DNA from: an uncultured delta proteobacterium
GTDB lineage: Bacteria > Desulfobacterota > Binatia > Binatales > Binataceae
Assembly: GCA_963765675.1 (NCBI GenBank)
Contig: CAVXXK010000001.1
Location: forward strand, 864,001 to 928,000
Reading direction: 5' to 3'
DNA length: 64,000 bases
The translations under genes were made by a program, and so were the position numbers. Numbering within the stretch: the stretch's first letter is position 1; each line of letters begins with the position of its first letter. Shown here piece by piece: positions 33,963 to 57,028 of the stretch. The notes below the pieces were generated by a model. It worked only from the letters and a program-made list of their open reading frames with translations. It did no database searches and had not been told where the DNA came from.

Positions 33963-34049
33963 TTGACAAGTTTCTCGGACTTCCCTAATGATTGCCGTCC
34001 ATAGCGTGCTGCGGCAATTTCGCCGCGGTCAACTTTTCGGAGGCGGTTC
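33963..34049 (+). promoter_or_regulatory. Conserved promoter and 5' leader of paralogue 3
   Basis: TTGACA-N17-TAATGA, 87 nt before the ATG. Confidence 0.65.
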
Positions 34050-35369: not shown

Positions 35370-35421
35370 GCGCCGATGAATCTCTGAACCAGCTGCCGTA
35401 AATCCGGCAAGCAAAAACACA

Positions 35422-38812: not shown

Positions 38813-38827
38813 CATCCCCTGCTTTAT

Positions 38828-42303: not shown

Positions 42304-42308
42304 TTCTG

Positions 42309-43244: not shown

Positions 43245-43250
43245 CGTGGG

Positions 43251-44072
43251 TCATCCTCCTGCGGGCGCCGGCGCGACGCCTTCGATTCGTTCGATAATTT
43301 CCGCGGCGAGCGTGCGGTAGCCCTCGGCGCCTGACGAGCGCGGGTCGTACTCGATCGCGGACAGGCCATGGCTCGGGCTTTCGGACAGGCGCACGTTGCG
43401 CGGAATCACGCTGCGAAAAACCTTGTCTGGAAAATGCTGCCGCACCTCGCGCGCGATTTCATGCGACAGCCGGTTGCGCGAATCGAACATCGTCAGCACC
43501 AGCCCCTCGATTTCGAGACCCGGACTGAGCGCGAGCTTGACCTTGCGAATCGTCGCGAGCAGCGAGCTCAGCCCCTCGAGCGCGTAGTACTCGCACTGCA
43601 TCGGAACCAGAACCGAGTCGGCGGCGACGAGTGCATTGAGGGTGAGAATGCCGAGCGAGGGCGGCGAGTCGATTAAAACATAGTTATATTCTAATGCGAC
43701 CGCTTCCAACAACAACCGCAAACGCCGTTCTCGCCCCTCCATCGTCGCCAACTCGATCTCGGCGCCGACCAGGTCGCCTCCCGACGGCGCGAGGAACAGG
43801 TTCGGGCGCATCTCGCATACCACTTCGCCGAGCGGAGCGCCAAGGACCAGCGAGTCGTAGATTGTCTTCTGCGGCGATGGCGCGGGCTCAGATTCCTTGC
43901 CGGGATCCGGTTCCCTAACGATCGTTAGGCCAGAGGTGGCGTTGCCCTGCGGATCGAGATCGACCAGCAGCACGCGCCGGCCGCTCTGTGCGAGCGCCAC
44001 CGCGAGATTGATCGCAGTGGTGGTCTTTCCGACTCCGCCTTTCTGATTGGCAATTGCGATAACCCGCCCCAC
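43251..44072 (-). CDS. parA: Chromosome partitioning ATPase ParA/Soj
   Basis: ANQKGGVGKTTT, DLDPQGNAT, PMQCEYYALEG, IPRNVRLSESPS. Confidence 0.96.
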   Translation of the reverse strand: MGRVIAIANQKGGVGKTTTAINLAVALAQSGRRVLLVDLDPQGNATSGLTIVREPDPGKESEPAPSPQKTIYDSLVLGAPLGEVVCEMRPNLFLAPSGGDLVGAEIELATMEGRERRLRLLLEAVALEYNYVLIDSPPSLGILTLNALVAADSVLVPMQCEYYALEGLSSLLATIRKVKLALSPGLEIEGLVLTMFDSRNRLSHEIAREVRQHFPDKVFRSVIPRNVRLSESPSHGLSAIEYDPRSSGAEGYRTLAAEIIERIEGVAPAPAGG

Positions 44073-44092
44073 AGCCAGCCCACCTCGTGCGA

Positions 44093-44108
44093 CGTTTCAC
44101 GTGAAACG
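44093..44108. promoter_or_regulatory. parS: parS site
   Basis: CGTTTCACGTGAAACG, within a perfect 22-bp palindrome (44090-44111) upstream of parA; matches the TGTTTCACGTGAAACA consensus. Confidence 0.9.
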
Positions 44109-44209
44109 TCGACGGGTCCATTAGACGCCGCGCGATCGCGAAAAGCAAAGCGCGCGCACGGCGGGAATCCACAGCTATCGCAAGTCAGGCGAGATCTGAT
44201 CGAGCGCGG

Positions 44210-44932
44210 TCAGCTCTCTTTGAGCCAGAGGGCGAGGGCGCGGACGATTTTCTCACCGCCACGAGAGAGCTCGTAACGCGGCGACAAGAGACCGGTCAAT
44301 CCTGCGGCCGAGGCAGCGTCGTTGTCGACCTCCTGCCCGGCTGCGAGGTAGGCCAACGCGATCCCGCCAGGTCTGAGCGCCATCCGCGCGAGCTCAAAAA
44401 ATTCGGGCATCACGCCGACCGCGCGGATCGTGATCAGATCGAACCCGCCGACCGATAGACCGGTTGGCGTTCCTCGCGTATGGACAATCGTCACGTTCGG
44501 CAACTCCATCGCGGCGGCGGCGGTCTCGAGGAAGCTCACGCGCTTGCGTCGCGCCTCTATCAGCACGGTCTCGAGCCCAGTTGCGGCGGCGAGAATCAGA
44601 CCGGGGAAGCCGGCACCGCTGCCTACATCTATCAGTCGGCAGCCTGGGCTGAGCACGCGCCCGAGGACGGAGTCGGGCTGCTTCCTGGCCATCCAGAAGG
44701 GGGCGAGCGAATCCATCACGTGGAACAGAATCTCGTCCGGGTTCTTCGGCGAGGCGGTCAGGTTGATTTTCTGCCCCCACAGCGCCAGATGGGACGCGAA
44801 TGTCCCGACCTTTTCGGACAGTGTTACAGAGACATCGTCGAAGCCGGCATCGAGCAGGATGCGCTCAAGCTTGCTCCGGACGACGTGGCCGATTTGGTTG
44901 ACGTCGGGATCATTTGGCGGTCGACGTTTCAC
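44210..44932 (-). CDS. rsmG: 16S rRNA m7G527 methyltransferase RsmG (GidB)
   Basis: INLTA, HVMDSL, DVGSGAGFPG, RRKRVSFL; syntenic position. Confidence 0.92.
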   Translation of the reverse strand: MKRRPPNDPDVNQIGHVVRSKLERILLDAGFDDVSVTLSEKVGTFASHLALWGQKINLTASPKNPDEILFHVMDSLAPFWMARKQPDSVLGRVLSPGCRLIDVGSGAGFPGLILAAATGLETVLIEARRKRVSFLETAAAAMELPNVTIVHTRGTPTGLSVGGFDLITIRAVGVMPEFFELARMALRPGGIALAYLAAGQEVDNDAASAAGLTGLLSPRYELSRGGEKIVRALALWLKES

Positions 44933-44940
44933 GTGAAACG
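44925..44940. promoter_or_regulatory. parS: parS site overlapping the predicted rsmG start
   Basis: CGTTTCACGTGAAACG. Confidence 0.9.
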
Positions 44941-44944
44941 TGGG

Positions 44945-46822
44945 TCAGGGCGCGCGAAAGGCTCGCTCGCGGCCGCCTTTGATATGGACCGCCAAGAGCG
45001 AGATCGCGGCTGGCGTGACCCCGGGCATCCGCGCTGCCTGCCCGAGCGATTGCGGGCGCACCGCCGACAGGCGCTCGCGCACCTCCGTCGAGAGGCCGGT
45101 CACGGCAGCGAAGTCGACCCAGTCGGGGATAGCGGCATCCTCGAGGCGCTTGAAGCGCTCGATCGCTTCGGCCTGGCGCTTCACGTAGCCATCATACTTG
45201 ACGTCGATTTCGAGCTCGGCAGCTTCGTCGAGCGTCAGCATGACCGACTCGTCGAGCATCCTCATCAGGGTCGAGTACGAAATTTCTGGCCGACGCAGAA
45301 GCTCGATCGCTCGTGACGGATGCACGATCGGCGTCGAGTCGGCAGCCGCTAGCATCGCGTTGACGCGGTCGCTTGCGGGGACGGTGACCGAGTTGAGCCT
45401 CGCGAGCTCCGCCGCCACGTCCGAGGCCTTAGCCTCGACCCGGTCGCCCGCACGCGCGTCGAGGAGCCCGAGCCGCGCGCCGATCGCGGAGAGGCGGCGG
45501 TCGGCATTGTCCTCGCGCAGGAGGAGCCGGTACTCGGCGCGGGACGTGAACATCCGGTACGGCTCGCCGCCGATTCCACGTGTAACAAGATCATCGATCA
45601 TGACGCCGATGTATGCCTGGTCGCGACGAAGGAGCATCGGAGGTTCGCCACGGACCGCTAGCGTAGCGTTAATTCCCGCTACTAAACCTTGTGCAGCAGC
45701 CTCTTCATATCCTGTCGTGCCATTGAGCTGTCCAGCAAAATATAAGCCATTTAAGAGCTTGGTCTCTAGGCTAGAGTTCAATTGAGTAGGGTCAGAGAAA
45801 TCATATTCGATCGCGTAACCGGGCCGCATTATTTCGGCATTCTCGAGGCCTGCAATCGAATGAACCATCGCGACCTGAACGTCGAGCGGCAGGCTGGTCG
45901 ACAGACCGTTGGGATAAACCTCGACGGTGTCGCGCCCCTCGGGCTCGAGGAAAATCTGATGGCGCTCCTTGTCGCGAAAACGCATCACCTTGTCCTCAAC
46001 CGAGGGGCAGTAGCGCGGGCCGCGGCTCTGGATCACGCCGGAGTACATCGGCGAGCGGTCGATTCCCGCTCGGATAATCTCATGGGTGCGCGCGTTGGTG
46101 TAGGTGAGATGACACGGGATCTGCGGCTGCGTGATTCGCTCGGTGCGAAACGAGAACGGGGGCGGCGGCTCGTCGCCGGGCTGAGTCTCCAGCGCGGAGT
46201 AGTCGATCGTTCGCGCGTCGAGGCGCGGGCAAGTGCCCGTCTTGAGGCGGCCGATCCGGAAACCGTGACGCCCGAGGTCGTCGCTCAGTCCCATCGCGGC
46301 GAAATCGCCAGCGCGGCCCGCGTTGTAGTTTCGCAACCCGATATGGACGAGCCCCTTCAGGAAGGTGCCGGTCGTGAGGATCACGGTGGCGGCTTCGAAG
46401 ACCTCTCCGATTTGCGATTCGACGCCGCGCACTTGCCGCCCTTCGACAACCAGGCGCTCGACGCTCGCCTGGCGAATCGTCAGGTTATCTACAGACTCGA
46501 GTACGCGCTTGCTGCGTGCGCGATAGGCAGCCTTGTCGGCCTGCGCGCGGCGCGCGCGCACGGCGGGACCTTTGCGGGTATTGAGGAAGCGGAACTGGAT
46601 TCCGGTCTCGTCGATCGCGAGGCCCATCTCGCCGCCGAGCGCGTCGATTTCGCGCACGAGGTGGCCCTTGCCGATTCCGCCGATCGCGGGATTACAGGAC
46701 ATCTGGCCGATATGGTCGAGGTTGAGCGTGAGCATCAGCGTGCGCGCGCCCATCCGAGCGGCGGCGAGTGCGGCTTCGATTCCGGCGTGTCCTGCGCCGA
46801 CGATTATGACGTCATACTGCAT
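44945..46822 (-). CDS. mnmG: tRNA modification enzyme MnmG (GidA)
   Basis: YDVIIVGAGHAG, MSCNPAIGG, GPRYCPS, AGQLNGTTGYEEAAAQG, YRMFTSRAEYR; start at 46822 (the ORF-track extension runs into a repeat). Confidence 0.97.
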   Translation of the reverse strand: MQYDVIIVGAGHAGIEAALAAARMGARTLMLTLNLDHIGQMSCNPAIGGIGKGHLVREIDALGGEMGLAIDETGIQFRFLNTRKGPAVRARRAQADKAAYRARSKRVLESVDNLTIRQASVERLVVEGRQVRGVESQIGEVFEAATVILTTGTFLKGLVHIGLRNYNAGRAGDFAAMGLSDDLGRHGFRIGRLKTGTCPRLDARTIDYSALETQPGDEPPPPFSFRTERITQPQIPCHLTYTNARTHEIIRAGIDRSPMYSGVIQSRGPRYCPSVEDKVMRFRDKERHQIFLEPEGRDTVEVYPNGLSTSLPLDVQVAMVHSIAGLENAEIMRPGYAIEYDFSDPTQLNSSLETKLLNGLYFAGQLNGTTGYEEAAAQGLVAGINATLAVRGEPPMLLRRDQAYIGVMIDDLVTRGIGGEPYRMFTSRAEYRLLLREDNADRRLSAIGARLGLLDARAGDRVEAKASDVAAELARLNSVTVPASDRVNAMLAAADSTPIVHPSRAIELLRRPEISYSTLMRMLDESVMLTLDEAAELEIDVKYDGYVKRQAEAIERFKRLEDAAIPDWVDFAAVTGLSTEVRERLSAVRPQSLGQAARMPGVTPAAISLLAVHIKGGRERAFRAP

Positions 46823-46907
46823 GGCGATGAAGGCAGGATTATTGCGCGGCGGAGCGCCCGGCGCAAAGCGCGGAGAGTGGTGGCGATGGCGGGGATCGGC
46901 GCAGTGC

Positions 46908-46985
46908 GCCCTCACCCTGCGTGTCACGGCGATTGCAAAAAAGAGCAATCGCCGCGCCACGCTGCCCTCTCCCGGAGGGAGAGGG
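46908..46985 (-). repeat. CCCTCTCCC..GGGTGAGGG-type repeat (inverted copy)
   Basis: CCCTCACCC...CGATTGC..GCAATCG...CCCTCTCCC..GGGAGAGGG. Confidence 0.7.
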
Positions 46986-47028
46986 TATCAGTAGAGGCTG
47001 ACTTAAAGAGGTAACCGCCTCCAAATTA

Positions 47029-48402
47029 TTATTTGCCGATGCAGAATTCGCGGAAGATTGCGTCGAGTATTTCCTCGCCGGTTACTTCGCCCGTGATCGC
47101 GCCAAGTGCTTCTGCCGCAGCGGTTATATCGACGGCGGAGATCTCGGGCGGCATCCGCGCGAGCACGCTCGCGCGCGCGGCGCGCAGCGAGGAGAGCGCG
47201 CGCTCGAGCGCGTCGCGATGGCGGTCGCGCGAAATCGCGAGCTCGCTCGCGCCGTCGGGAGCGCCGAGCGAATCGACGGCGTGGGCGAGCTCGTCGCGCA
47301 AGGCGGGAAGTCCGTCGCCGGCGAGTGCCGAGATCGCAAGAATCGGCATCGCGATTCCCACCTCTCGCAGCTCCGCGGCTCCGGAGATTTGGGGCAGGTC
47401 CGACTTGTTGAGCAGCGCAACACCGGCGCGTCCGGCGCACAGCCGGGCGACAGCCAAGTCTTCATCGTCGAGTGGACGCGACGAATCGAACACCGCGATC
47501 ACCAGGTCGGCGTCGCCGAGCGCGGCGCGCGAGCGCTCGATACCGAGCCGCTCGATCTCGTCGGGGCTGGCGCGGATTCCAGCGGTATCGAGCAGGGTTA
47601 TCGCGTGGGCGCCGAGCTGGACGACGTCTTCGATCACGTCGCGAGTGGTCCCAGGAATCGCTGTGACGATCGCGCGCTCGGTCCCAAGCATGAGGTTGAG
47701 CAGGCTGGACTTGCCGACGTTGGGCTTGCCGATAATCGCAGCTCGCGCGCCCTCGCGAACGACTCTGCCACGCGAGAAGGAGTCGTGCAAAACGGCAACA
47801 TCGCCGATCACATGCTCGATCTCCTCGGTCATCGCGTGACGCGACGGCATCGCGATATCTTCGTCGGAGAAATCGATCTCGACTTCAAGATGCGCCCGGA
47901 TGTTGACGATTTTCTTTCGTAATTCTTTTACTTTCTTCGACAGATTACCGGAAAGCTGAGCAAGCGCCTGTCTGAGACCGGACTCGCTGCGAGCGGAAAT
48001 CAGATCAGCGACAGCTTCCGCCTCAGCGAGATCGATCCGTTCATTCAGAAATGCACGGCGGGTGAACTCTCCCGGTTCGGCGATTCGCGCTCCGTGCGAA
48101 ATTGCCACGGCGACGATCTGGCGCGTAAGGTAGCTGCCGCCATGGCAGTGCAACTCCGCAACGTCTTCTCCAGTGAAAGATTTAGGCTTGGGGAAGACGA
48201 CGGCCATCGCGCGATCGAGGTTTACTCCAGTCGCGGGGTCGATGACGTCCCCGATGACCAGCTCGCGAGGATTGCCTTCGCGCGCGGGATGCCAAATCGC
48301 ACGGAGGATTTCGAACGCTCGCGGGCCGGAGAGCCGGATGATCGCGACGGCGCCAATTCCCGGCGCGGTGGCGGGCGCAACGATTGTATCGGGCAGGTAC
48401 AT
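47029..48402 (-). CDS. mnmE: tRNA modification GTPase MnmE (TrmE)
   Basis: SFTGEDVAE, GKPNVGKSSL, GTTRD, DTAG, NKSD, FCIGK terminus. Confidence 0.97.
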   Translation of the reverse strand: MYLPDTIVAPATAPGIGAVAIIRLSGPRAFEILRAIWHPAREGNPRELVIGDVIDPATGVNLDRAMAVVFPKPKSFTGEDVAELHCHGGSYLTRQIVAVAISHGARIAEPGEFTRRAFLNERIDLAEAEAVADLISARSESGLRQALAQLSGNLSKKVKELRKKIVNIRAHLEVEIDFSDEDIAMPSRHAMTEEIEHVIGDVAVLHDSFSRGRVVREGARAAIIGKPNVGKSSLLNLMLGTERAIVTAIPGTTRDVIEDVVQLGAHAITLLDTAGIRASPDEIERLGIERSRAALGDADLVIAVFDSSRPLDDEDLAVARLCAGRAGVALLNKSDLPQISGAAELREVGIAMPILAISALAGDGLPALRDELAHAVDSLGAPDGASELAISRDRHRDALERALSSLRAARASVLARMPPEISAVDITAAAEALGAITGEVTGEEILDAIFREFCIGK

Positions 48403-48475
48403 CGCGTGGTTAGGTTAGCATCGCGGCCGGGGATGGTACGATGCGTGCGCGCGATATGGCATCGAAGATAAGAGA

Positions 48476-48581
48476 CACAGGCTAAAGCCTGTGACACTTC
48501 CAGGCAAAAATCTCTTAGGTGCCATGGCTTTGAGACTGTGCCAGAGACGATTTTCTTAAGTGGCACAGGCTTTAGCCTGTG
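48476..48581. repeat. GTGG-REP doublet upstream of the RAYT
   Basis: GTGG-CACAGGC-TTTA-GCCTGTG hairpins in inverted orientation at 48476-48497 and 48560-48581, plus a degenerate middle copy. Confidence 0.85.
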
Positions 48582-48630
48582 TTCTTGGAATTTCGGAAGC
48601 TGGGTATAATTCCCTGCGAGCAAGGGATTC

Positions 48631-49149
48631 ATGGGAAGGAAAGAACCTTCGGACACCGATCCTCATCACTTTCAGGAAATTGATCCCTGGAAGTCCGAAG
48701 ACCTTGTCGCGAAGCACCGCAATCTGCCGCACTTCGAGGTGCCCGGAGCTACATACTTCGTAACCTTTCGGTGCCGCTCGAAGATCACGCTTCTGCCTGA
48801 GTCACGTGATCTGGTCATGGAGACAATCCGGACATGCGACCGCACGGTCATCGAGTTGGATGCGGCCGTCGTGATGCCGGATCACGCGCACGTAATTTTC
48901 AGGCTCATTGATACCCGCACGCTCAGCCAGGTTGTTCAGCGGATCAAGGGTCGATCGGCCCGTCAGATCAATCAGGTCCTTGGGACCGAGGGTGCGGTCT
49001 GGATGGACGAGAGTTTCGACCACATCATTAGGCATGAGGCGGAGCTGGAAGAGAAAATCGAATACATCAGGCAAAATCCGGTCAAGCGAGGGCTTGCGGT
49101 GCGGCCGGAAGATTACAGGTGGTTGTTTGTGAGAGAAGACACAGGCTAA
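48631..49149 (+). mobile_element. REP-associated tyrosine transposase (RAYT/TnpA-REP, Y1 HUH)
   Basis: RNLPHF, TYFVTF, VVMPDHAH (HUH), FDHIIR, YIRQNPVKRGL; flanked on both sides by inverted GTGG-REPs; stop codon lies inside a REP. Confidence 0.9.
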
Positions 49150-49316
49150 AGCCTGTGCCACTTAAAACAAAAATCTAAATCACTTAGAACAAAAATCTGA
49201 ATCTCGGAGGTGGTAAAGGCTCCGGCTTCTGTTAAGAGGACTTTTTCATGTGGCACAGGCTCTGGCCGTCTATAGGGGGAGGAACAGTTCCTAAGTGGCA
49301 CAGGCTTTAGCCTGCG
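49140..49316. repeat. GTGG-REP cluster downstream of the RAYT
   Basis: Copies at 49140-49161, 49250-49270 (degenerate) and 49295-49316. Confidence 0.85.
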
Positions 49317-49338
49317 TTCTGAGGAAGCGGAATTGATC

Positions 49339-49776
49339 ATGAAGACGGGAAATGGATTCGTCGCTTACCTTCCTGGATTCAAAGGTTCGGACGCCCTACT
49401 GATTTTGGCGGATTCCGAGACGATCGATTGGCTGATGGCACAGTTCGGCCAGCTTGCGAGCGCTCCAGTTGGATCCGTCTGTCCGGCTTTTCTCATCGGA
49501 GACGGAAATCCGATCGAATCGGATGGCCTTTGTCTTCTGGTAGTAGAACCGGAAAATCAGGCAGAAGGCAGCCGCCTTATCCGAGATTCTGACGGGACAT
49601 TCAGGTGGAGTGTCTCGCGGCTATCGGCGGGTCATTATCGCGAGCTGCTTTCTGGCATATCAGGGCCGCATCCGGCGCATCAGTATCTCGATCCCAACAA
49701 CAGCCCTCCCGCGCCAGTGGTTATCATTTCCCGGGACGAATATGACGCCGAAACTTTCCGTCGTCCGAAGAACTAG
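49339..49776 (+). CDS. Hypothetical protein whose first 37 codons form the repeated left arm
   Basis: GAGGAAG RBS; 145-aa ORF with a C-terminal HQYLD motif. Confidence 0.65.
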   Translation: MKTGNGFVAYLPGFKGSDALLILADSETIDWLMAQFGQLASAPVGSVCPAFLIGDGNPIESDGLCLLVVEPENQAEGSRLIRDSDGTFRWSVSRLSAGHYRELLSGISGPHPAHQYLDPNNSPPAPVVIISRDEYDAETFRRPKN

Positions 49777-49819
49777 GTGCCTGATACGGGGAGTTATATC
49801 GCGTCGTCACGTAAGCATC

Positions 49820-50240
49820 GCGGCGGGGAAGACACAGGCTAAAGCCTGTGCCACTTAAGACGAAAACGGAAGCAGCAGCCAAAATGCCAAGGCACCGCGT
49901 CACAAAAAAAACACCAAGGCACCAGAAAAAGAGAGCGGGGACTTGCTTTTGGGAAGGACTCGCTTCTGCTTCGTGTCTGTTCTTCGTGCCTTGGTGATTT
50001 GATTGGCTCGCGGAGGGTCAGCACGAGGGGCGGGAGTACCGGCTTGCGGAGACGGGCGCGTCGCGACGCGCCCCTACGAATCTGATTCTTATTCGTAGGG
50101 GCGGCTCGGGAGCCGCCCGTCTTCGCAGGGCTGAACAGAACCCCTGCGTGTAGATCTTTCGCCTCCTGCCAAGATGGCAATTCAAACCGCCATGACACTT
50201 CGCGTCGGCCGACGGGCCGTCGGCATCCACTGACAGTAGG
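49820..50240. repeat. REP mosaic (GTGG-REP, ACCAAGGCACC array, GTAG-REP pair, GTGGATGCCGACGG)
   Basis: Copies at 49833-49854, 50054-50118 and 50206-50230. Confidence 0.85.
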
Positions 50241-50459
50241 AAGCTGCTGGCCACAGGCGATCGGGCTCTCGGCTACATTGCGCGGGGGGCGATCGAGGAT
50301 GTCAGGCTTTAGCCTGCGTTCTGAGGAAGCGGAATTGATCATGAAGACGGGAAATGGATTCGTCGCTTACCTTCCTGGATTCAAAGGTTCGGACGCCCTA
50401 CTGATTTTGGCGGATTCCGAGACGATCGATTGGCTGATGGCACAGTTTGGGTAGCGATG

Positions 50460-50590
50460 GTGTGTCGTGGAGTCGGCCAACCCGCGCTGCGTGCGTAGGT
50501 AGCTCTCATACTCGTCACGCAGGAAGCCCTCATCTCTGTCCTTTCGCAACCGCTGCTGCGCACCGCAATTGCTCGACGGGGCGATACCAT
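50460..50590 (-). pseudogene. Fragment of a tyrosine recombinase (RIT-element type)
   Basis: LRDEYESYLRTQRGLADST resembles the core-binding domain start of RIT integrases; truncated at the left arm. Confidence 0.5.
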
Positions 50591-50599
50591 TGATCGGCG

Positions 50600-50626
50600 T
50601 TGACTAGACCGACCGGTTGGTATACT
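50600..50626 (+). promoter_or_regulatory. Promoter with an overlapping TetR-type palindromic operator
   Basis: TTGACT-N15-TATACT spanning TAGACCGACCGGTTGGTA (NemR-box-like); spacer is short. Confidence 0.55.
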
Positions 50627-50638
50627 CGATCACAGACA

Positions 50639-51283
50639 ATGGCCGAAAGTCCATCACGAACGAGCATTCTTAAGACGGCCGGCGATCTGATGCTCAAGTA
50701 CGGCTATGCCGCAACGTCGATCGACGACATTTGTTCCAAAGCGCGGGTAACAAAGGGGAGCCTGTACCACTTTTTTGAAACCAAGGAAGAACTCGGGCTC
50801 GCGGTCCTGAACGGATTCTACGAGCGAGGCGTCGCGCGCGTGGCAAGTGGCGCATACATGGGGATGAATGACCCGTACCAGCGTCTGCTCGGTCTGTTCG
50901 ATCATCTCGAGACGATTGGACCGGACCTCTGGCGCCACGGATGCCTGATGGGGAACTTCGCCTGCGAGTTCGCCGAGTCGAGCCAAACTATACGGCGCCG
51001 CGTAGCCGGGATGTTCGAAGAGCTGGTGAATAGGTTGTCGCCGATCTTCGGGCCGATCGCGCGCGACCGAAAGGAAGCGGACGAGCTGGCGGAGCAAACG
51101 CTCATGGTGATCGAGGGTGCGGTCGTTATGGCAAGGGCGCACGACGATCCGAGTCGCATAGCCTCAGGCGTGCGCCGCTTTCGGCGCACGATCGAGGCCC
51201 AGATCGGGAAGTCGAGAACAGCTACGGAGAAAATAAACCGAGGGCGAGCAAGTTCGCCCCTGCAACACAAGGGAGGAGAATAG
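50639..51283 (+). CDS. TetR/AcrR-family regulator (NemR-like)
   Basis: GYAATSIDDI..VTKGSLYHFFETKEEL, HGCLMGN. Confidence 0.9.
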   Translation: MAESPSRTSILKTAGDLMLKYGYAATSIDDICSKARVTKGSLYHFFETKEELGLAVLNGFYERGVARVASGAYMGMNDPYQRLLGLFDHLETIGPDLWRHGCLMGNFACEFAESSQTIRRRVAGMFEELVNRLSPIFGPIARDRKEADELAEQTLMVIEGAVVMARAHDDPSRIASGVRRFRRTIEAQIGKSRTATEKINRGRASSPLQHKGGE

Positions 51284-51285
51284 CC

Positions 51286-51888
51286 ATGTCCGAGTCGTGG
51301 ACCCTTAAAGGATCGTACTTCGAAACCTGCAACTGCGAGACCGCCTGCCCGTGTGTCTTTTTGAGCCCTCCCACCGAAGGCGATTGCACCGTGCTTGTCG
51401 CCTGGCACGTTGACGAAGGCCGCTTCGGTGAAGTCGCGCTCAATGGCCTCAACGTGGCGCTTGCGGTCCACAGTCCGGGCCACATGGCAGAGGTTAAGTG
51501 GAAGGCGGCGCTTTACCTCGACGAACGCGCCTCCGGAGAGCAGCAAGAAGCCCTAACGAAAATCTTCAGCGGTCGGGCGGGGGGTCATCCTGGCCGTGTC
51601 GCCCAGCATATTGGCGAAGTGCTTGGGGTCAGAAGCGTACCGATCGAGTATAAGGCGGACGGTAAGCGACGCTCAGTTCGAGTGGGCAATGTGGCGGATG
51701 CGACGATTCAAGCGATCGCGGCGCCGGCGGGCGACGTAACCGTCAGCGGTCATCCGCTGGCGCTAGCGCCCGGCTTCCCGGCGGTCGCGGCACGGTCGGA
51801 AAGGCTCCGCTACCAGGATCACGGCTATAGTTGGGAGATCTCGAAAAAGAACGGGTTCTATTCTCCGTTCCAGTACGCCAATGGGTGA
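51286..51888 (+). CDS. DUF1326-family protein
   Basis: GSYFETCNCETACPC...PTEGDC, YLDERA..EQ.EAL.KIFSG.AGG. Confidence 0.85.
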   Translation: MSESWTLKGSYFETCNCETACPCVFLSPPTEGDCTVLVAWHVDEGRFGEVALNGLNVALAVHSPGHMAEVKWKAALYLDERASGEQQEALTKIFSGRAGGHPGRVAQHIGEVLGVRSVPIEYKADGKRRSVRVGNVADATIQAIAAPAGDVTVSGHPLALAPGFPAVAARSERLRYQDHGYSWEISKKNGFYSPFQYANG

Positions 51889-52684
51889 CTCGACCCTGAA
51901 GGTGCGAGATCCAATCACCGCCCTGCTGCGCCGCGATCGCTGGGTGGTTCTGGGCGGCTTGGCCGCACTGACTCTCTTCACCGCCGTCGAAAGCCGGTCG
52001 GTCGGAGATGCGATGATGCGCACCCCATCGCCTTTGTTGTGTGTATTTCTCTCGGCCCGATGGGGACCCGCCGAGCTGGCGACAATCGCGCTGATGTGGA
52101 GCGTGATGATGGTCGCCATGATGACGCCGACCGCATCGCCGATGGTGTTGGCGTTCGCCGGGCTTGAGCGTCGGCGTATCGGCGGCACAGGCGCTCCTTG
52201 GGGAACGACGAGCACTTTTCTTAGCGGATATCTGCTGGTCTGGATGGGCTTCAGCGTACTGGCGACGCTCGCCCAGTGGGGTCTTCATTCCGCAGCGATG
52301 TTATCGGCTGGCGGAATGAAGATGGCGAGCTCTTCGGTCGCTGCGGTGCTTCTGGTGAGCGCGGGAGTCTTTCAGTTCTCGTCAGCGAAATCAGCCTGCC
52401 TGAAGCATTGCCGCACACCGGTCGGCTTCCTGCTCTCCGAGTGGCGCGAGGGAATGGGTGGCGCGCTTGTGATGGGCGTTCGTCACGGGCTGTACTGCGT
52501 CGGCTGTTGCTGGCTATTGATGCTGCTTTTGTTCGTCGTCGGCGTGATGAACGCAGCGTGGTGCGCGGCGCTTGCCACTCTCGTTCTTGCAGAAAGGGTT
52601 TTGCCCGGCGGGCTGTGGCTCGCGCGCACAGTGGGTATCGTACTCGCTCTGTCAGGTGGCGCTTTGGCCGCCGGCATCTGGTAG
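51881..52684 (+). CDS. DUF2182 metal-binding integral membrane protein
   Basis: MWSVMMVAMMTP, KSACLKHCRTP, GLYCVGCCWLLM; usual partner of DUF1326. Confidence 0.85.
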   Translation: MGDSTLKVRDPITALLRRDRWVVLGGLAALTLFTAVESRSVGDAMMRTPSPLLCVFLSARWGPAELATIALMWSVMMVAMMTPTASPMVLAFAGLERRRIGGTGAPWGTTSTFLSGYLLVWMGFSVLATLAQWGLHSAAMLSAGGMKMASSSVAAVLLVSAGVFQFSSAKSACLKHCRTPVGFLLSEWREGMGGALVMGVRHGLYCVGCCWLLMLLLFVVGVMNAAWCAALATLVLAERVLPGGLWLARTVGIVLALSGGALAAGIW

Positions 52685-52707
52685 CGGCCACCGCCGGTGT
52701 TGTGTAA

Positions 52708-53100
52708 CGCGTCGGCCGACGGGCCGTCGGCATCCACTGATTCTTATTCGTAGGGGCCGCTCGGGAGCCGCCCGTCTGGGAAGAGCCAAAGATAGCCGAT
52801 CCGTGTAGAGCTTTCCCCTTTTGTTCATGATGGCAATTCAAACCGCGATGACGCTTCGCGTTGGCCGACGGGCCGTCGGCATCCACTGACAGAAGGGAGC
52901 TTGCGGAGACGGGCGCGTCGCGACGCGCCCCTACGAATCTGATTCTTACTCGTAGGGGCGGCTCGGGAGCCGCCCGTCTGGGAAGAGCCGAAGATAGCCG
53001 ATCCGTGTAGAGCTTTCCCCTTTTGTTCACGTTGACAATTCAAACCGCGATGACGCTTCGCGTCGGCCGACGGGCCGTCGGCATCCACTGACAGAAGCAA
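52708..53100. repeat. Tandemly duplicated REP mosaic (~200-bp period)
   Basis: 52740-52895 is nearly identical to 52942-53097, with a related copy at 50084-50236. Confidence 0.85.
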
Positions 53101-53367
53101 CAGCTGGCCACAGGCAATCGGGCTCTCGGCTACATTGCGCGGGGGCGATCGAGGATGTCAGGCTTTAGCCTGTGTTCTGAGGAAGCGGAATTGATCATGA
53201 AGACGGGAAATGGATTCGTCGCTTACCTTCCTGGATTCAAAGGTTCGGACGCCCTACTGATTTTGGCGGATTCCGAGACGATCGATTGGCTGATGGCACA
53301 GTTCGGAAGGCGGCAAAACACTAGCCTGTGGTGGTGTATTTCAGGTCGGGACCTTGCTTGAGAAGAC

Positions 53368-54093
53368 TCACTTTACGTCCAATTCCTTGAGTTTTGCCGC
53401 TGCCGTTCCGTAGTTGCCAAGATGAAAAACAGATGCTCCTGACGGAGAGAAGGTGAAATCCTCAAACGGTGCTGCGACCATCTTTTTCAGGTAATCCACC
53501 GGCGCAAGGCCGGTGGTAACGTGCAGCTCTAAATGCTCGCCGGAATGCTCCGGCACATATACCTCGATGTAGTGAATCGTCGCCTCATTAATATCCGGGG
53601 CAGCGGGAGTGGTGACGAATGCGGCCGCGGTTCCGGTCCGCACCGTGTAAGGCGCCACGGCGTCAATCAAATCCTTCTGCAGCTTCACCAATTCCGGAGT
53701 CGTCTCCACCACGATGCCCGATAAGCCTAAGCCCGGCAGCGACGGAGAGGTAAGGTAGTAATATTTGTAGGCCTTCAATTTAAAACTGGCAATATTGTAG
53801 CTTTCGAAGACTTTGCCGGCGGCGGCGTAAATCTTGTCGAGGTCCGCCGTGCGGACGTAACGCTGCAACATCGAGATGTGCGGATGATGCGTCGCGTCGA
53901 GCGAAAAGCCCTTCGGGAACACCGAGCGCAGGCGAGCGTTCACGGCTTGCGCGTGATGCACCATCGTGGCATCCGGCTCCAGCGCTATGTCGATGGCAGT
54001 GATGGGACTTGGTTGTGCCATCGCTGCGCCCCAATAGCCCAGCAACGATGCCAGGAAAACGACGATTGAGGCGGCCTTCGCGAATCTGTTCAT
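53368..54093 (-). CDS. Secreted protein, probable 2H-phosphoesterase fold
   Basis: Signal peptide (..AAMA-Q); two Hx[ST] motifs, PHISM and LHVTTG. Confidence 0.6.
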   Translation of the reverse strand: MNRFAKAASIVVFLASLLGYWGAAMAQPSPITAIDIALEPDATMVHHAQAVNARLRSVFPKGFSLDATHHPHISMLQRYVRTADLDKIYAAAGKVFESYNIASFKLKAYKYYYLTSPSLPGLGLSGIVVETTPELVKLQKDLIDAVAPYTVRTGTAAAFVTTPAAPDINEATIHYIEVYVPEHSGEHLELHVTTGLAPVDYLKKMVAAPFEDFTFSPSGASVFHLGNYGTAAAKLKELDVK

Positions 54094-54151
54094 GCAATGC
54101 TCCGCTTATTGGATAGGAGTAAAAACCGTCCGCGGACGTCTCGAATCGTCT

Positions 54152-55177
54152 TCATTTGTCAAAAGTGAAAATTCGCTTCCAGTCATTCTTCATGCTGATC
54201 ACGTTCCAGCCCCTGGACTTGGCCTCATCGTAGAGCGCCTGCGTGAACGTCCCGACTTTGGTGTCCGGTAGACCATCGGCAGGGCCGTATGCGTACTCGC
54301 GTGCGGGATCATCGTGCAACACCAACATCATCAACCGTGCGCCGTCGCCCGCCTGGGTCCATTCCAGCATCTGCTTGTCGCCGGGCGAGTTGCCAAACGC
54401 CGCGTAGGGCCGCTTGCCGATAAACAGGTTGATCCCGACGGGCTTGCCGGCATTGTCGTCGATGAAGAACACTTTGGGCTCGCGCATCAGTACCGGTTTG
54501 CCGTCCCGGTACTCGAATTTGGTCAGGATGCTCGATCCCACGACCTGCTCGGGCGGGACACCATAGACACTTTCGCTGTATACCCGCACGAACTCCTGGC
54601 CGCCGCCAGTGACGATGTAGGTTTTGAATCCATTAGCGCGCAGGTAATCCATGACCTCGAGCATCGGCTGGTAGACGAGGGCCGCGTACGGCTGATGAAA
54701 TCTCGGATCTCTGGCGGTTGCCAACCACTGCTTCACAAGCTGCTGGAACGCTTCGGTCGTCATTCCGGCATGGGTCGCTGCGAGGATAATTTCCCAGTCC
54801 GATTCCGAGAACTTGCCGATCGCCGCACGATCGTTCGTGAGAACCGCCTTGAACGGATCGCGTTCTTTCCATTCGGGATGCTGCGGGGCCAGCTCGTGCA
54901 CGCGGGCTAGCGCAAACGTAGCCTGAGTATACAGGGGATGTTCGACCCAAAGGGTGCCATCCTGATCGAAGGTGGCAATGCGATCCTGAGGTTCGACGTA
55001 TTTGGTGCCAGACTTGTCTGTAACTTCTTTGACGAAAGAAACGATCGCCTGTTTCGCCGGCCCGTCGTTCCACGATGCAAGCGCTGGTGTCTGAGCGTTT
55101 GCGTGGAGACTCAACGCCAGAAACATGACGATGACGAAAGCGCCGGGCAGCTTCGGGATCTTCCGACGAGAGTTCAT
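54152..55177 (-). CDS. Secreted HAD-family phosphatase (nonspecific acid phosphatase-like)
   Basis: FDQDGTLW, YQPMLEV, IVTGGG, AFGNSPGD. Confidence 0.88.
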   Translation of the reverse strand: MNSRRKIPKLPGAFVIVMFLALSLHANAQTPALASWNDGPAKQAIVSFVKEVTDKSGTKYVEPQDRIATFDQDGTLWVEHPLYTQATFALARVHELAPQHPEWKERDPFKAVLTNDRAAIGKFSESDWEIILAATHAGMTTEAFQQLVKQWLATARDPRFHQPYAALVYQPMLEVMDYLRANGFKTYIVTGGGQEFVRVYSESVYGVPPEQVVGSSILTKFEYRDGKPVLMREPKVFFIDDNAGKPVGINLFIGKRPYAAFGNSPGDKQMLEWTQAGDGARLMMLVLHDDPAREYAYGPADGLPDTKVGTFTQALYDEAKSRGWNVISMKNDWKRIFTFDK

Positions 55178-55428
55178 TGCGCTCCTTATCGAACGATTCT
55201 CGATTAACTTTGGTCAAATCGACGCTCCGACTCTATTGTACCTTGGTACAAGGAGGACGGTCTCCCTCGCGCTCCCCCTGTTCAGGGGCGCGGTGGGGCT
55301 GTTGCGGTGTCGGCTATGGGGCGCAAGCATCGCAAACCGCGATGACGCTTCGCGTCGGCCGACGGGCCGTCGGCATCCACTGACAGGAAAAAGACCGCTG
55401 GCGCGCCATAGGCGCTCGAGCTTTCGCG

Positions 55429-56670
55429 CTACATTGCGCGGAGGCGGTCGAGGATGTCTTCGGAGAATAGTTCTGCGGGAAGTAGCTCGGGGCCTACGAA
55501 GGCGGCGGGACCGAGATCGGGAAGGGCGTTGCGGGCGCGCGCTTCGCGGACTTTGATTCGGCGCGCGCGCGCATCGGGGCCGAACTCTACGTTCAAGATC
55601 GACAGGGTCGAGGCGGTCAGGCGCAGCCGGCGCATCCGCTCGCGCCGCTCCTCGGCGTAGGGACGGAAAATCTCCGGAGTCCAGTCGCGATTCTCGAGCA
55701 TCAGGTCGCGCACGATTCGCACGTCGCGATAGGTGATCGAAAGCCCCTGCCCGATAATCGGATCGTTGTGGCCGGCGGCGTCGCCGATCAGAACCACACC
55801 GGGCGCGTACGGCGTGTCGGTCCAGGTGTCCTCGTTACCGTAGGAGTTGCAGGGCCCGGCAGGGGTCGCGTTCGCAAGATACTCGCTCGCGGGGACGTAT
55901 CCGAGTTTGAACGCGTCGAGGAAGCGCGCCTGGTTGTCGGCGCCGGCGAACCGGCGGCGGTCTTCGAGCGCATAGCAGATGTACAGCCGGACCCGGCTCG
56001 CCGATTGCGGAAACGCGAGAAAGTTGATCGTGTTTTCGGTTCCGAAGATTTGCAGGTCCTCGGGCCATCCGTCGGTGTCGTCAACCAGAAGCCCCGCCAT
56101 CAGATGGTGCGAAGGATCGCGATGATACTCGATACCGGCCTGGCCGCGGACGATCGAGTTGCGGCCGTCGGCGCCGATCACGATGCGCGGGTTGTATTCG
56201 GTAAGGCGGCCGTCGTCGCGAAATCGCACTGCGGGCGAGGCGCCGGGGGTGACTGCGACGTCGGTGACGCCCCGGATGAGCACCGCTCCTCGCGAGGTCG
56301 CGGCGGCATTGAGGAGATCGCACATCTCGGGATGACGCATGCATAGCGGAGGCGGCAGGCCTATCGACTCGAACGCGGTGAGGTCGAGCGTCTGGCTTTC
56401 GGCGCTGGCGCGATCGAGATCGTCGCCGTAGGGGATGTGGCGCTTGAGGTGATGCCCGCCCGCTTTTTTAAGGAGATCATACAATCCGAGCCGCTTGGTC
56501 TCGGCGACTCCCCACGGAGCGATCCACTCGCCGCGCACGTGATCGACGTGGACGGTGGATTTCTCGAGGATGGTCGTCGCGATTCCGGCTTGCGCGAGGC
56601 TGGCGGCGAGTGCGCTGCCGCCGATTCCTCCGCCGATTATCACGACGTCGGGATTGTTTTGGTTGGGCAT
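55429..56670 (-). CDS. FAD-dependent monooxygenase/oxidoreductase
   Basis: IIGGGIGG, GADGRNS, LIGDAAG.NDP..GQG. Confidence 0.9.
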   Translation of the reverse strand: MPNQNNPDVVIIGGGIGGSALAASLAQAGIATTILEKSTVHVDHVRGEWIAPWGVAETKRLGLYDLLKKAGGHHLKRHIPYGDDLDRASAESQTLDLTAFESIGLPPPLCMRHPEMCDLLNAAATSRGAVLIRGVTDVAVTPGASPAVRFRDDGRLTEYNPRIVIGADGRNSIVRGQAGIEYHRDPSHHLMAGLLVDDTDGWPEDLQIFGTENTINFLAFPQSASRVRLYICYALEDRRRFAGADNQARFLDAFKLGYVPASEYLANATPAGPCNSYGNEDTWTDTPYAPGVVLIGDAAGHNDPIIGQGLSITYRDVRIVRDLMLENRDWTPEIFRPYAEERRERMRRLRLTASTLSILNVEFGPDARARRIKVREARARNALPDLGPAAFVGPELLPAELFSEDILDRLRAM

Positions 56671-56714
56671 CGTACGAGCGATGATAAGCACAAAATCGGC
56701 GATGTTGTCAGGAG

Positions 56715-56885
56715 GCGGCGGAAGACACAGGCTAAAGCCTGTGCCACTTAAAACAAAGATTCAAATCAACAGTCAAAACACCAAGGCACCAAGGAAAGAC
56801 ACCAAGGCACCAAGAAGAAAGGAAAAAGAGAGCGGGCCTTCCTTTGTGTCTTGGTGTCTTGGTGGTTTGATTGGGCACAGGCTGC
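56715..56885. repeat. REP mosaic related to 49820-50005
   Basis: GTGG-REP at 56726-56747 followed by an ACCAAGGCACCAAG inverted array. Confidence 0.8.
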
Positions 56886-57028
56886 GCAGCACGGTGCTTG
56901 CTCGGGGGGCGCTGGTGTGGTTGCATGGCGGATCGGGCGCGGAAGACTTTGCGATGCGTCGCGCCCGCTATGATCGAAATCTTAAAGCGCGCCAGTTCTC
57001 TGGCGCGGTATAAAGTTGGCTCCGACCG

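Follow-up and report, generated by a model that had tools for sequence, protein, structure and literature searches.

Within the window, the 64,000-nt stretch of DNA that we analysed, an intact gene for a RAYT (REP-associated Y1 HUH transposase) lies between mnmE and an array of repeated arms and accessory genes, which ends at a gene for an FAD-dependent monooxygenase (Table 1). The host is a soil bacterium, and the RAYT is called a domesticated, enigmatic enzyme. Its translation carries the HAH motif and the catalytic tyrosine (in IEYIRQNP), its stop codon lies inside a REP, and the copy on a second contig of the same assembly (C10) is 100% identical. In the doublet downstream of the gene, the minus strand carries the functional form of the REP at 49139-49164 and the plus strand that of the REP at 49296-49319 (GTGG followed by a 7-bp stem), with a degenerate REP at 49243-49275; the tag is GTGG here, as in the consensus of 43 copies. 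Composite REP clusters recur in the neighbourhood: the REP-A/'caccaagg' composite of 49828-50016 is found again at 56721-56900, and a 325-bp module at 38826-39146 and 41927-42250 (93.8% identical).

Table 1. Features of the RAYT locus and its array (positions in the window).
Feature	Position	Strand	Remarks
mnmE (tRNA modification GTPase), left neighbour of the RAYT locus	47029-48402	-	Pfam MnmE_helical E 2.4e-55, TrmE_N E 1.4e-41
REP doublet (REPIN) upstream of RAYT	48475-48582	.	Inverted REP-A pair 58 nt apart; I14, 25 nt, 96% complementary; REP-A matches
RAYT	48631-49149	+	Pfam Y1_Tnp, E 1.7e-9
REP doublet downstream of RAYT	49139-49319	.	I11, 26 nt, 96%; REP-A consensus, 43 genome copies
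Arm copy 1 (D)	49302-49448	+	Contiguous with full gene; half REP, RBS, ~37 codons
Conserved hypothetical gene, source of arm	49333-49776	+	147 aa from TTG 49333, or 145 aa from ATG 49339
REP-A and 'caccaagg' hairpin element	49828-50016	.	Families D5, D7, D9, I2, I9
Junction module J1	50040-50450	+	REP-C 50050-50127, REP-B 50191-50236, spacer, monooxygenase tail (T) 50272-50303, arm copy 2 50304-50450
Cargo 2	50451-52707	+	Recombinase-like stump, TetR, DUF1326, PpoB2/DUF2182 (Pfam; stump by eye)
Cargo 2 stump	50451-50590	-	~46-codon N-terminal piece of tyrosine-recombinase-like ORF, by eye only
TetR	50600-51283		Pfam
DUF1326	51286-51888		Pfam
PpoB2 (formerly DUF2182)	51881-52684		Pfam
REP-B/REP-C cluster after cargo 2	52708-52896	.	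Family D4, 96%
Junction module J2	52897-53306	+	REP-C, REP-B, spacer, T 53129-53159, arm copy 3 53160-53306
Cargo 3	53307-55260	-	241-aa secreted-looking protein and HAD-family hydrolase
241-aa secreted-looking protein	53368-54093	-	Weak 2H-like match: Pfam 2_5_RNA_ligase2, E 0.032, sub-threshold
HAD-family hydrolase	54152-55177	-	Pfam
Native REP-B, spacer, native tail	55341-55458	+	Spacer of different allele type; 31-bp T 55428-55458
FAD-dependent monooxygenase, right neighbour, source of T	55429-56691	-	Pfam FAD_binding_3 E 6e-22

We confirmed that three head-to-tail units, which hold different genes and are connected by identical joints, lie next to the RAYT gene. Firstly, a 147-bp arm occurs three times, as an earlier note on this DNA had described. 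It comprises half a REP, an RBS and the opening ~37 codons of a genuine gene of 147 aa, and does begin, as that note had it, within the RAYT-adjacent REP, 3 nt into the 7-bp stem (GTGG CAC/AGGC TTTA GCCTGCG; here and below, a slash marks the boundary). Only two positions differ among the three copies: position 14 is a T in copy 3, and position 145 a T in copy 2 (50448, 3 nt before the end of the copy). The claim that the copies end at the same base holds for copy 3, whose maximal exact homology reaches 53306, but only to within 3 nt for copy 2, where it stops at 50447. Secondly, the two internal joints are indeed identical, GAGGATGTC being followed directly by AGGCTTTAG at 50303/50304 and at 53159/53160. 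Each joint is preceded by 31-32 bp that form the end of the monooxygenase gene; the joint GATGTC/AGGC is present twice, with a microhomology of 1 nt only, a C. Thirdly, the units had been said to end with REPs and this ~31-bp tail; the tail is present, but the repeated module is larger, ~409 bp (50042-50450 versus 52899-53306, 92.6% identical), and runs in the order REP-C, REP-B, gene tail, arm. Its copies J1 and J2 differ at 32/265 positions in the REP half (87.9% identity) versus 2/147 in the arm half (p 5e-5), and over ~200 bp at the joint (spacer end, tail and arm) at ~4 positions only. The REP cluster that follows cargo 2 lies within a 202-bp tandem duplication (52737-52895 / 52939-53097).

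The source gene of the arm has 26 homologues of 141-166 aa (43-90% identity), and no Pfam domain was detected in its 147-aa product. Behind arm copies 2 and 3 there are truncated pseudo-ORFs of 58 and 68 aa, and the genes of cargo 3 run antisense to the arm. Pfam bears out the earlier TetR, DUF1326, DUF2182 (now PpoB2) and HAD calls. The supposed 2H protein has only the sub-threshold match, and the supposed integrase fragment has no Pfam match, but does resemble by eye the N-terminus of a tyrosine recombinase.

The array is strain-variable and lies in the flank of a REPtron, that is, a RAYT gene together with its REPs. It comes from a metagenome bin whose contamination is 4.3% and whose small contigs C8, C10, C11 and C13 repeat parts of the large contigs as strain variants. 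C10 carries the array in a two-unit form with the same joints: compared with C1, exactly unit 1 (1002 bp) is absent, so that unit number varies between two co-assembled strains, which supports the earlier note. The REP-to-tail part of J2 is identical to its C10 copy at 263/263 aligned positions. In both strains, the arm copy that has the full gene (copy 1) reads C at position 145 and copy 2 reads T, which fits the arrival of unit 1 with its own arm. The tail and spacer of J1 and J2 are of the allele type native to a sister species (G003), unlike the type beside the monooxygenase gene of this genome (G000), indicating that the units arrived with their own tail.

The layout is not fixed among relatives. 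The RAYT gene directly abuts the monooxygenase gene, 140-200 bp apart, in G009 and G005, two genomes of the same genus that lack the array; the 6.3-kb array is therefore a lineage-specific insertion. The RAYT orthologues of G009 and G005 each carry a different 1-nt frameshift just before the catalytic tyrosine, and the REP-A/'caccaagg' composite also lies between RAYT and monooxygenase in G009. Across the genus, where 7/11 genomes have a monooxygenase orthologue, the mnmE-monooxygenase interval is variable with or without a RAYT; G001, which has no RAYT there, holds an APH-like kinase. The proposal that cargo is interchangeable gains support: cargo 2 (50519-52717) is 93% identical to DNA at another chromosomal locus in G003, for which this genome has an empty site, and the HAD gene of cargo 3 is found elsewhere in G001. 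A 152-bp remnant of cargo 3 in G003 (53306-53457, 97.4%) starts at the arm-cargo 3 boundary. All five arm matches in this genome belong to this array or to C10. No arm was found in any other public contig: two scans gave 11 loci, each a chance match of 20-27 nt. These contigs gave no further cargo types with such arms either.

Two other genomes of the family (G005 and G079) showed the same geometry, in which a RAYT is followed by a REP doublet and then, on both sides of cargo, by 148-260 bp of a neighbouring gene's 5' end in duplicate. In G005, ~260 bp of mnmE, the truncated copy deriving from the genome's own lineage rather than a foreign one, surround 2.6 kb with an alpha/beta hydrolase; in G079, where the doublet has a GTAG tag, 148 bp of an ABC-ATPase gene surround 1.9 kb, within which a 24-nt third remnant of the duplicated segment separates two cargo segments. 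G115 provides the empty site for the G079 insert, and no integrase was found in either cargo. The three loci, in three species, agree in orientation, the duplication lying 3' of the plus-strand-functional REP, and their boundaries are C-first, in keeping with the REP tag. The duplication starts with CA in G005 and CT in G079 (CA on the minus strand of the latter), and the arm, by maximal homology, with CA (plus strand) and CC (minus strand). C comes first at 5/5 clear boundaries (p ~0.003 at 31% C) and at the three outside the discovery locus (p 0.03), under a rule that permits a one-base shift and was formulated after the first joint had been seen. The clean geometry occurred in only 2/25 other windows examined. 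By the criteria set for the control, direct repeats were present in 4/25 RAYT or other Y1-homologue windows (5 instead of 4 if L132, a 7.4-kb contig, is included) versus 16/218 tiled 20-kb windows of G000, not a significant enrichment in what is a weak test (Fisher p 0.13; p 0.07 for 4 of the first 20). In addition, a REP-free G000 locus (C1:1743981/1746327) has a gene-tail duplication around a 491-aa ORF that is also bounded C...G.

The earlier gene-capture interpretation thus survives in part: we observe the anatomy of the array, its insertion, its variation between strains, the relocation of its cargo and the recurrence of its geometry, but not membership of an integron-like class. Our preferred reading, offered tentatively as falling a little short of probable, is that three fixed breakpoints by the REP doublet of the RAYT were reused and that the units were then stacked and lost by homologous recombination between strains, cargo 2 being a decayed integrase island. 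Catalysis of the joints by the RAYT, and the order of events, are inferred. Breakpoint (a) would fall on the plus strand in the REP adjoining the RAYT gene (GGCAC/AGGC), breakpoint (b) on the plus strand 31 bp into the monooxygenase gene (GATGTC/TTCGG) and breakpoint (c) on the minus strand at codon ~37 of the hypothetical gene (GGC/CGAAC); all three can be read as C/N, the published signature of TnpAREP cleavage and strand transfer. The RAYT would cut single-stranded DNA at C/T or C/A near REPs and join any 3'-C end. Cuts at (a) and (b) could release or circularise the contents of the RAYT-monooxygenase interval, and pasting the released segment back at (a) would give the tail-arm joint, an IS608-like peel-and-paste of a segment without a transposase. 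A cut at (c) and joining to the distal end would then give arm-cargo joints ending on the same base. The units would stem from related strains with different accessory genes in this interval, and homologous recombination between the 147-409-bp repeats would add and remove them.

According to PMC8266576, the base at the attacking 3' end must be C and becomes joined to the T of C/T, a group-3 enzyme also cleaves C/A, and changing GTAG to GTGG leads to cleavage at CA and CC; with a GTGG tag and CA/CC arm starts, the joints here fit this chemistry. Several points speak against the RAYT: breakpoint (a) lies within the REP stem, whereas published cuts flank the hairpin on its 5' or 3' side; no REP-A lies within 80 nt of breakpoints (b) and (c); C...G bounds also occur at the REP-free locus; and homologous recombination alone suffices for gain and loss of units. 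If the RAYT did cut and paste these joints, an enigmatic enzyme would gain a role in gene shuffling.

It is rather unlikely, in our view, that the RAYT is an uninvolved neighbour in a REP-rich hot spot, where one illegitimate recombination of the monooxygenase tail to a REP gave a tandem duplication, accessory DNA entered by its own integrase, by transformation or by single-crossover integration of circularised fragments, and homologous recombination stacked or removed units. This would agree with the variability of the interval with or without a RAYT, the integrase stump of cargo 2, the few differences between J1 and J2 at the joint (compatible with one origin), the REP-free duplication elsewhere in G000 and the non-significant enrichment, and a crossover in 145 identical bases explains C10 versus C1. 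However, duplication and recombination would not make two different cargos meet the arm at one and the same base, or no more than 3 nt apart; the shared orientation and tag-matched boundaries at three loci, and a joint microhomology consisting of the very C that the enzyme requires, also favour the RAYT. Less likely still is a dedicated, selected gene-capture platform, with the RAYT as recombinase, the REP doublet as attachment site and cassettes entering RAYT-proximally to be stockpiled for the benefit of the host. Fixed sites are reused, C10 lacks the proximal unit, the G079 insert is split by its remnant and the cargo consists of accessory genes; but the clean geometry was seen at this locus and only two of 25 others examined, cargo orientation is inconsistent and pseudo-ORFs follow the arms, the units are whole inter-site intervals with REP clutter rather than compact cassettes, and public contigs added no cargo types. 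We consider it very unlikely that the ~410-bp module (REP cluster, tail and arm) is a non-autonomous mobile element inserted twice into a pre-existing row of genes: its copies do share a left edge (CTTGCGGAGACGGG, the start of REP-C) and a right edge, and composite REP clusters recur nearby as modules, but the module is confined to this array, the sequence left of J2 is not continued in the G003 flank left of cargo 3, and the REP half is far more diverged than the arm half. Concatenation of strain variants at repeats, the misassembly that the earlier note had named as a possible refutation, is barely credible even for a contaminated bin with strain-variant contigs, since C10 independently holds the joints, J1 is distinct from J2 (unit 1 is thus not a collapsed copy), a switch at the 31-bp tail would be required, and short-read contigs of other runs span the arm-cargo 3 joint (X1, 53150-53469) and the REP-arm joint (X3, 49288-49445); the array is neither due to chance nor an obvious misassembly.

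Some integrative elements duplicate the end of their target gene, as prophages do in icd. The counterparts of the array in G005 and G079 resemble these in that a direct gene-end repeat flanks cargo, leaving the neighbouring gene intact (mnmE in G005, the ABC ATPase in G079), but differ in the absence of integrase from their cargos and in the own-lineage origin of the truncated G005 copy. In IS200/IS605 elements (IS608, ISDra2), a guide tetranucleotide determines where a Y1 HUH enzyme cuts the two ends, both on one strand; the circle junction links right end to left end, and insertion occurs 3' of a fixed short target, which makes repeated insertion at one site possible. Here, by contrast, the moved segment has neither transposase gene nor right-end hairpin, the left cut is in a REP stem and the units are ordinary chromosomal intervals. 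With ISCR1 complex class 1 integrons and IS91 one-ended rolling-circle capture, a fixed end abuts varied cargo at one base, a partial duplicate of the flanking conserved segment follows the cargo, and homologous recombination stacks the units. The array shares these three traits; however, ISCR has its own Y2 transposase inside the fixed arm, whereas here the arm is 147 bp of REP and gene 5' end, with a single copy of the enzyme gene in trans. The integron-like label of the earlier note does not hold. The array is like an integron in being head-to-tail beside a recombinase gene, with heterogeneous cargo and a proximal unit that varies between strains, but it has no integrase (IntI), attI, attC-like sites, Pc promoter or shared promoter logic, and its 1.0-2.9-kb units combine, in both orientations, several genes with REP clusters and pseudogene stumps. 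Cargo 3 is antisense to the arm and cargo 2 begins with a reversed integrase stump. We rejected the arms as dedicated recombination sites because the left one is the 5' end of a gene with homologues and the right one the monooxygenase tail.

The closest likeness is to the REPtron/BIME models of TnpAREP (PMC3333891, PMC8266576): a Y1 HUH enzyme that is present in single copy between its own REPs cuts C/T or C/A near or distant from a REP and transfers strands to any 3'-C end, and excised single-strand circles and the sequestering of flanking genes or gene fragments were proposed. ISCR1/IS91 is named as a parallel in PMC3333891, where Ton-Hoang et al. reasoned that TnpAREP, by cutting at a distance, could sequester such genes or fragments. 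That these enzymes might take up neighbouring genes is therefore an idea already published; what stands is that our literature search, within the text of the sources available, found no RAYT with an adjoining array of units that bear genes and share fixed joints. The models treat copies of REPs and BIMEs, whereas the units here bear genes.

The array of three head-to-tail units between the RAYT gene and the FAD-monooxygenase gene is a real and unusual structure. It lies in G000, a metagenome bin of 16 contigs (95.6% complete, 4.3% contaminated), of which the window is C1:864001-928000. The 147-bp arm (half a REP, an RBS and a gene start) is present in three copies, as the earlier note had claimed, and only its positions 14 and 145 vary among them. 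The note was also right that the arm starts within a REP, 3 nt into the stem, and includes an RBS followed by some 37 codons of an ORF; this ORF is a genuine gene, since it has 26 homologues (141–166 aa, 43–90% identity), and it contains no Pfam domain. The two internal joints are identical, as had been described (both ..GAGGATGTC|AGGCTTTAG..), and the 31–32 bases ahead of each are indeed the end, or tail, of the FAD-monooxygenase gene. The joints are embedded in a repeated module, J, of about 409 bp, composed of REP-C, REP-B, a spacer, the gene tail and the arm. Between its two copies, J1 and J2, the REP-to-tail part shows 32 differences over 265 positions and the arm 2 over 147 (p 5e-5); the differences cluster in the REP spacers, with only about 4 falling within the roughly 200 bp around the joint. 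The spacer and tail of both copies are of the allele type native to the relative G003, while the type flanking G000's own monooxygenase gene is a different one, common to the relative G001. The array units came with a tail of their own.

Coordinates of the features (window positions unless a contig or locus is named)
Feature	Location	Strand	Remarks
RAYT ORF, 172 aa	48631-49149		Pfam Y1_Tnp, E 1.7e-9
Arm, first copy	49302-49448
Arm, second copy	50304-50450
Arm, third copy	53160-53306
ORF begun in the arm	49333-49776
Module J, copies J1 and J2	50042-50450; 52899-53306		92.6% identical
Cargo 2 (interior of unit 2), matched part	50519-52717		93% identical to G003 DNA
FAD-monooxygenase gene	55429-56691	minus	native copy of tail at 55428-55458
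Strain contig C10, left match	C10 4850-12205; window 42090-49445		97.8%
Strain contig C10, right match	C10 12061-18568; window 50303-56809		99.05%
Palindromic element, ~80 bp	46907-46989		more than 100 other places in G000
Composite REP cluster, 325 bp	38826-39146; 41927-42250		93.8% identical, 3.1 kb apart
Direct repeat, 1.4 kb	32122-33543; 33952-35373		90.6% identity, 1.8 kb apart
Distant Y1 homologues in G000	C7:68748; C1:652472		first with stop
Duplication in G000, 264 bp	C1:1743981-1744244; 1746327-1746590		93.6%, no high-copy repeats nearby
Perfect tandem repeat in G000, ~1.2 kb	C1:98142-99349		6-nt period
APH-family phosphotransferase gene	L088 (G001:C117) 1680-2681		Pfam APH, E 2.8e-17
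331-aa protein of G079	L123 11359-12354		Nuc_deoxyrib_tr, E 1.1e-5, 26 bits against a cut-off of 28.8
Direct repeat beside a RAYT homologue, 199 bp	L132 (G255:C230) 6389-6587; 7044-7241		86%

The identification of the RAYT was borne out. Its translation keeps both the HAH motif and the Tyr of IEYIRQNP, and its gene is flanked on both sides by inverted REP pairs (I3, I14 and I11). Its own repeat, REP-A, has 43 copies in G000 with the consensus GTGG + CACAGGC TT(T/C)A GCCTGTG, and the gene occurs once per haplotype (on C1, the contig of the window, and on C10, a strain variant); the remaining Y1 matches of G000 are 38–41% identical, and distant homologues are listed in the table. On all three counts tested, the RAYT and its REPs are an ordinary REPtron. 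RAYTs are single-copy genes, inherited vertically; to our knowledge, their activity is known only as the cutting and rejoining of REP DNA in vitro. The window also holds a very abundant palindromic element (CCCTC..GGGAGAGGG.. type) that belongs to none of the families REP-A, REP-B and REP-C.

In G009 and G005, two relatives of the same genus, a REP and a hairpin element are all that separates the orthologous RAYT from the monooxygenase gene, a distance of 140–200 bp. The array is an insertion that differs between strains. The 19.5-kb contig C10, from the same bin, matches the window to 49445 and then again from 50303, and hence lacks exactly unit 1 (1002 bp); it carries the joint of REP-arm to cargo 2, and the arm variants specific to each copy agree between the C1 and C10 strains. 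In a comparison across relatives, of the kind that the earlier note had proposed, the arm part of J had no match outside G000 among the 61 relatives searched, and the 147-aa protein of the ORF begun in the arm matched in 2 of the 61, namely G000 and, through a weak 35-aa match, G005. The unpublished genomes G010, G091 and G116 enter the relatives' counts, one comparison and one alignment row, and no claim depends on them.

Further variation was seen around these genes. In G009 and G005, the two genomes that lack the array, a 1-nt frameshift precedes the catalytic Tyr of the RAYT orthologue by a few codons, and it is not the same one in both (a deletion in an A run at about 4245–4250 of locus L061 in G009; an inserted C at about 9680–9700 of locus L105 in G005). 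The genes may truly be inactivated, or the shifts may be homopolymer errors of long-read sequencing. C10 ceases to match C1 exactly at the second REP doublet (42090), and C10:1-4850 has no C1 counterpart. The 325-bp composite cluster found twice in this region combines REP-C and a REP-A doublet with the abundant ~80-bp element, and a few small ORFs lie between its copies; this is another variable segment bounded by REPs. The 1.4-kb direct repeat is probably a tandem paralogous gene pair.

The cargoes have relatives elsewhere in the genus. In G003, the DNA resembling cargo 2 lies between matches to G000:C1:2271197-2277371 and 2277523-2289204, where G000 holds a 152-bp empty site. Left of the TetR gene, cargo 2 retains a minus-strand ORF stump of about 46 codons, which resembles the N-terminus of a tyrosine recombinase; in G003, the corresponding sequence departs from it past 'DEGFL'. 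For this stump, the integrase fragment of the earlier note, a Pfam search returned no match. Cargo 2 is, in our reading, an integrase island that has decayed and been severed by the arm joint; the idea that the arm end served as attB for this integrase was dropped, as the joint runs through the integrase ORF. The HAD gene of cargo 3 has its sole genus homologue in G001 (81% nucleotide identity), where the locus corresponds to G000:C1:1.834 Mb. In G003, the monooxygenase gene is adjoined by a cargo 3 remnant of 152 bp (97.4% identity); its homology begins exactly at the arm|cargo-3 boundary, next to 26 unlike bases, which match nothing in G003, G000 or G001, and then the contig end. A REP-like split hairpin spanning the arm|cargo-3 joint was considered and dropped, its stem being just 5 bp. 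The mnmE-monooxygenase interval of G001 contains an APH-family kinase gene and no RAYT. This interval is a hot spot.

We compared the joints with published RAYT chemistry. According to the available text of PMC3333891, TnpAREP cleaves at C|T, 5' or 3' of the REP and also at a considerable distance, and exchanges strands, the models including excised single-strand circles. The accessible part of PMC8266576 reports that only C can serve as the attacking 3' base, its partner in the new joint being the T of C|T, that a group-3 enzyme cuts CT and CA, and that a change from GTAG to GTGG gives cleavage at CA and CC. In G000, GGCAC|AGGC and GATGTC|TTCGG are the native sites, against ..GTC|AGGC.. at the joint; the other end of the arm reads GGC|CGAAC on the minus strand of the native gene, and the cargo strands joined there finish in C. 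Judged by their bases, the joints (C|A, C|T, C|C; tag GTGG) appear to match the prediction of the guide model. Against action of the RAYT, the left cut falls within the REP stem and not next to the REP.

Self-comparison of 25 other Y1/RAYT windows (11 + 9 + 5) revealed two clean cases of the same geometry. In G005, the RAYT and a REP doublet are followed by a truncated mnmE copy of about 260 bp, which covers the upstream region and the initial ~75 codons; next come 2.6 kb of cargo including an alpha/beta-hydrolase gene, and intact mnmE. The truncated copy bears G005-specific variants and is therefore not foreign. In G079, from another genus, the RAYT and a GTAG-tagged REP doublet precede a 148-bp copy of an ABC-ATPase gene (upstream region and first ~36 codons), 1.9 kb of cargo and the intact gene. 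This cargo holds two ORFs, one of 194 aa that belongs to no family and one for a 331-aa protein, whose nucleoside 2-deoxyribosyltransferase-like match (Nuc_deoxyrib_tr) stays below the threshold; a third remnant of the duplicated segment (24 nt) lies between both ORFs, and the corresponding empty site is present in the relative G115. In G000, G005 and G079 alike, the duplicated segment lies 3' of the REP functional on that strand, 0–39 nt away. By maximal homology the duplications start with CA in G000 and G005 (GTGG tags) and CT in G079 (GTAG tag), and on the opposite strand with CC in G000 and CA in G079; the fuzzy right boundary in G005 was left out of the scoring. All five clear boundaries are thus C-first (post hoc p about 0.003 at 31% C), three of them outside the discovery locus (post hoc p 0.03).

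Direct repeats also occur away from RAYTs, and their frequency speaks against the RAYT reading. Repeats of at least 100 bp and at least 85% identity, 300–6000 bp apart, occur in 4 of the 25 Y1/RAYT windows (5 including the 7.4-kb contig of L132) and in 16 of 218 tiled G000 windows, the discovery window excluded (Fisher p 0.13; 0.07 for 4 of the first 20). Among the four, G009 has merely REP elements and G129 (L122) is not clean, its 122-bp gene-tail repeat lying 2 kb from the RAYT and flanked by two large similar propeller-protein genes. The REP-free 264-bp duplication of G000, the 3' end of a 547-aa gene on either side of a 491-aa minus-strand ORF, is likewise bounded C...G, which counts against a role for the RAYT. 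Two other low-copy repeats of G000, at C1:424264 and C1:1904865, were set aside as conserved 5' parts of adjacent paralogues (signal peptide; sulfatase motif). The repeat in L132 lies on both sides of a RAYT homologue, and G000 also holds a long perfect tandem repeat.

Public data added partial coverage. A scan with the 20-mer of the arm's 3' end gave 6 loci in metagenome_contigs and 5 in genome_contigs, collections which may omit the window's own genome records; all 11 were chance matches of 20–27 nt, and this lack of the arm in other public contigs counts against the RAYT reading. None of the 20 sequencing runs listed contained half of the query words. Among the fragmentary contigs of the 4 runs examined (depth 2–7), REP|arm is spanned in X3 and arm|cargo 3 in X1, and no contig among the matches listed covers the tail|arm joint with at least 31 letters on either side. 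A 454-nt contig of X2 links 52862 to 55357, REP-B to REP-B, skipping 2494 bases; its 30 shared letters equal the assembler's k-1, the joint may be a graph artefact, and the contig was not counted as a variant without unit 3. We found no description of an array of gene-bearing units with fixed joints beside a RAYT in the available portions of the literature on RAYT/REPIN, TnpAREP/BIME, cassettes, integrons and gene capture.

The best-supported mechanism, ahead of a history without the RAYT, is that three fixed C|N sites next to the RAYT were used again and again; we propose it tentatively, at slightly less than even odds. The whole RAYT-to-monooxygenase interval of related strains would have moved by peel-and-paste, the fixed-site joints would have been made in the hypothetical gene, and homologous recombination would afterwards have shaped unit number. 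That the array arose independently of the RAYT is rather unlikely: such a history would account for everything except that the arm copies end alike and that boundaries matching the tag recur. Improbable, in our view, is that the RAYT and REP doublet act together as a platform for recombining single-strand DNA, which captures, stacks and exchanges gene-bearing segments of related strains; fixed C|N sites in the RAYT's flank would be cut, incoming 3'-C-ended DNA ligated there and captured segments stacked at the RAYT-proximal site. Such a platform would be an HUH-based functional analogue of the integron and would give domesticated RAYTs a host-level function. Plain tandem amplification is rejected, as one junction is common but the interiors of the three units are unrelated.

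As for repeated C|N-site use, the locus offers three predicted cleavage sites testable with oligonucleotides, and the G000, G005 and G079 loci provide concrete natural joints bearing the published enzyme signature. If confirmed, RAYT flanks would be an unrecognised route for inserting, duplicating and shuffling accessory genes in bacterial chromosomes, and the 2012 suggestion of gene sequestration by TnpAREP, a concept already present in the available text of PMC3333891, would gain its first worked example. If refuted, the locus would still be a clear case of a recombination hot spot that is rich in REPs and whose units vary at strain level.

The array had been called integron-like, a description that fails on the integrase, on attC/attI and on common promoter logic. 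No ORF of 47–57 kb contains an integrase domain, the only trace being the stump in cargo 2. Integron cassettes close with attC, with attI in addition, whereas the array units, judged by their repeats, end in REP-B/REP-C clusters and a 31-bp gene tail. Integron cassettes are promoterless and share a common promoter; here, the opposite strand encodes the genes of cargo 3 as well as the stump in cargo 2, and the ORFs opened by the second and third arm copies are only 58 and 68 aa long. ISCR and IS91 elements encode a Y2 HUH transposase of about 400–500 aa with oriIS and terIS, and no ORF of this type was found in 46–59 kb. In IS200/IS605 elements, the transposase lies inside a mobile unit, between left-end and right-end hairpins, and several copies occur, whereas the RAYT is single-copy and stands outside the repeated units; their cleavage sites are set by a guide tetranucleotide, and their joints form without target duplication.
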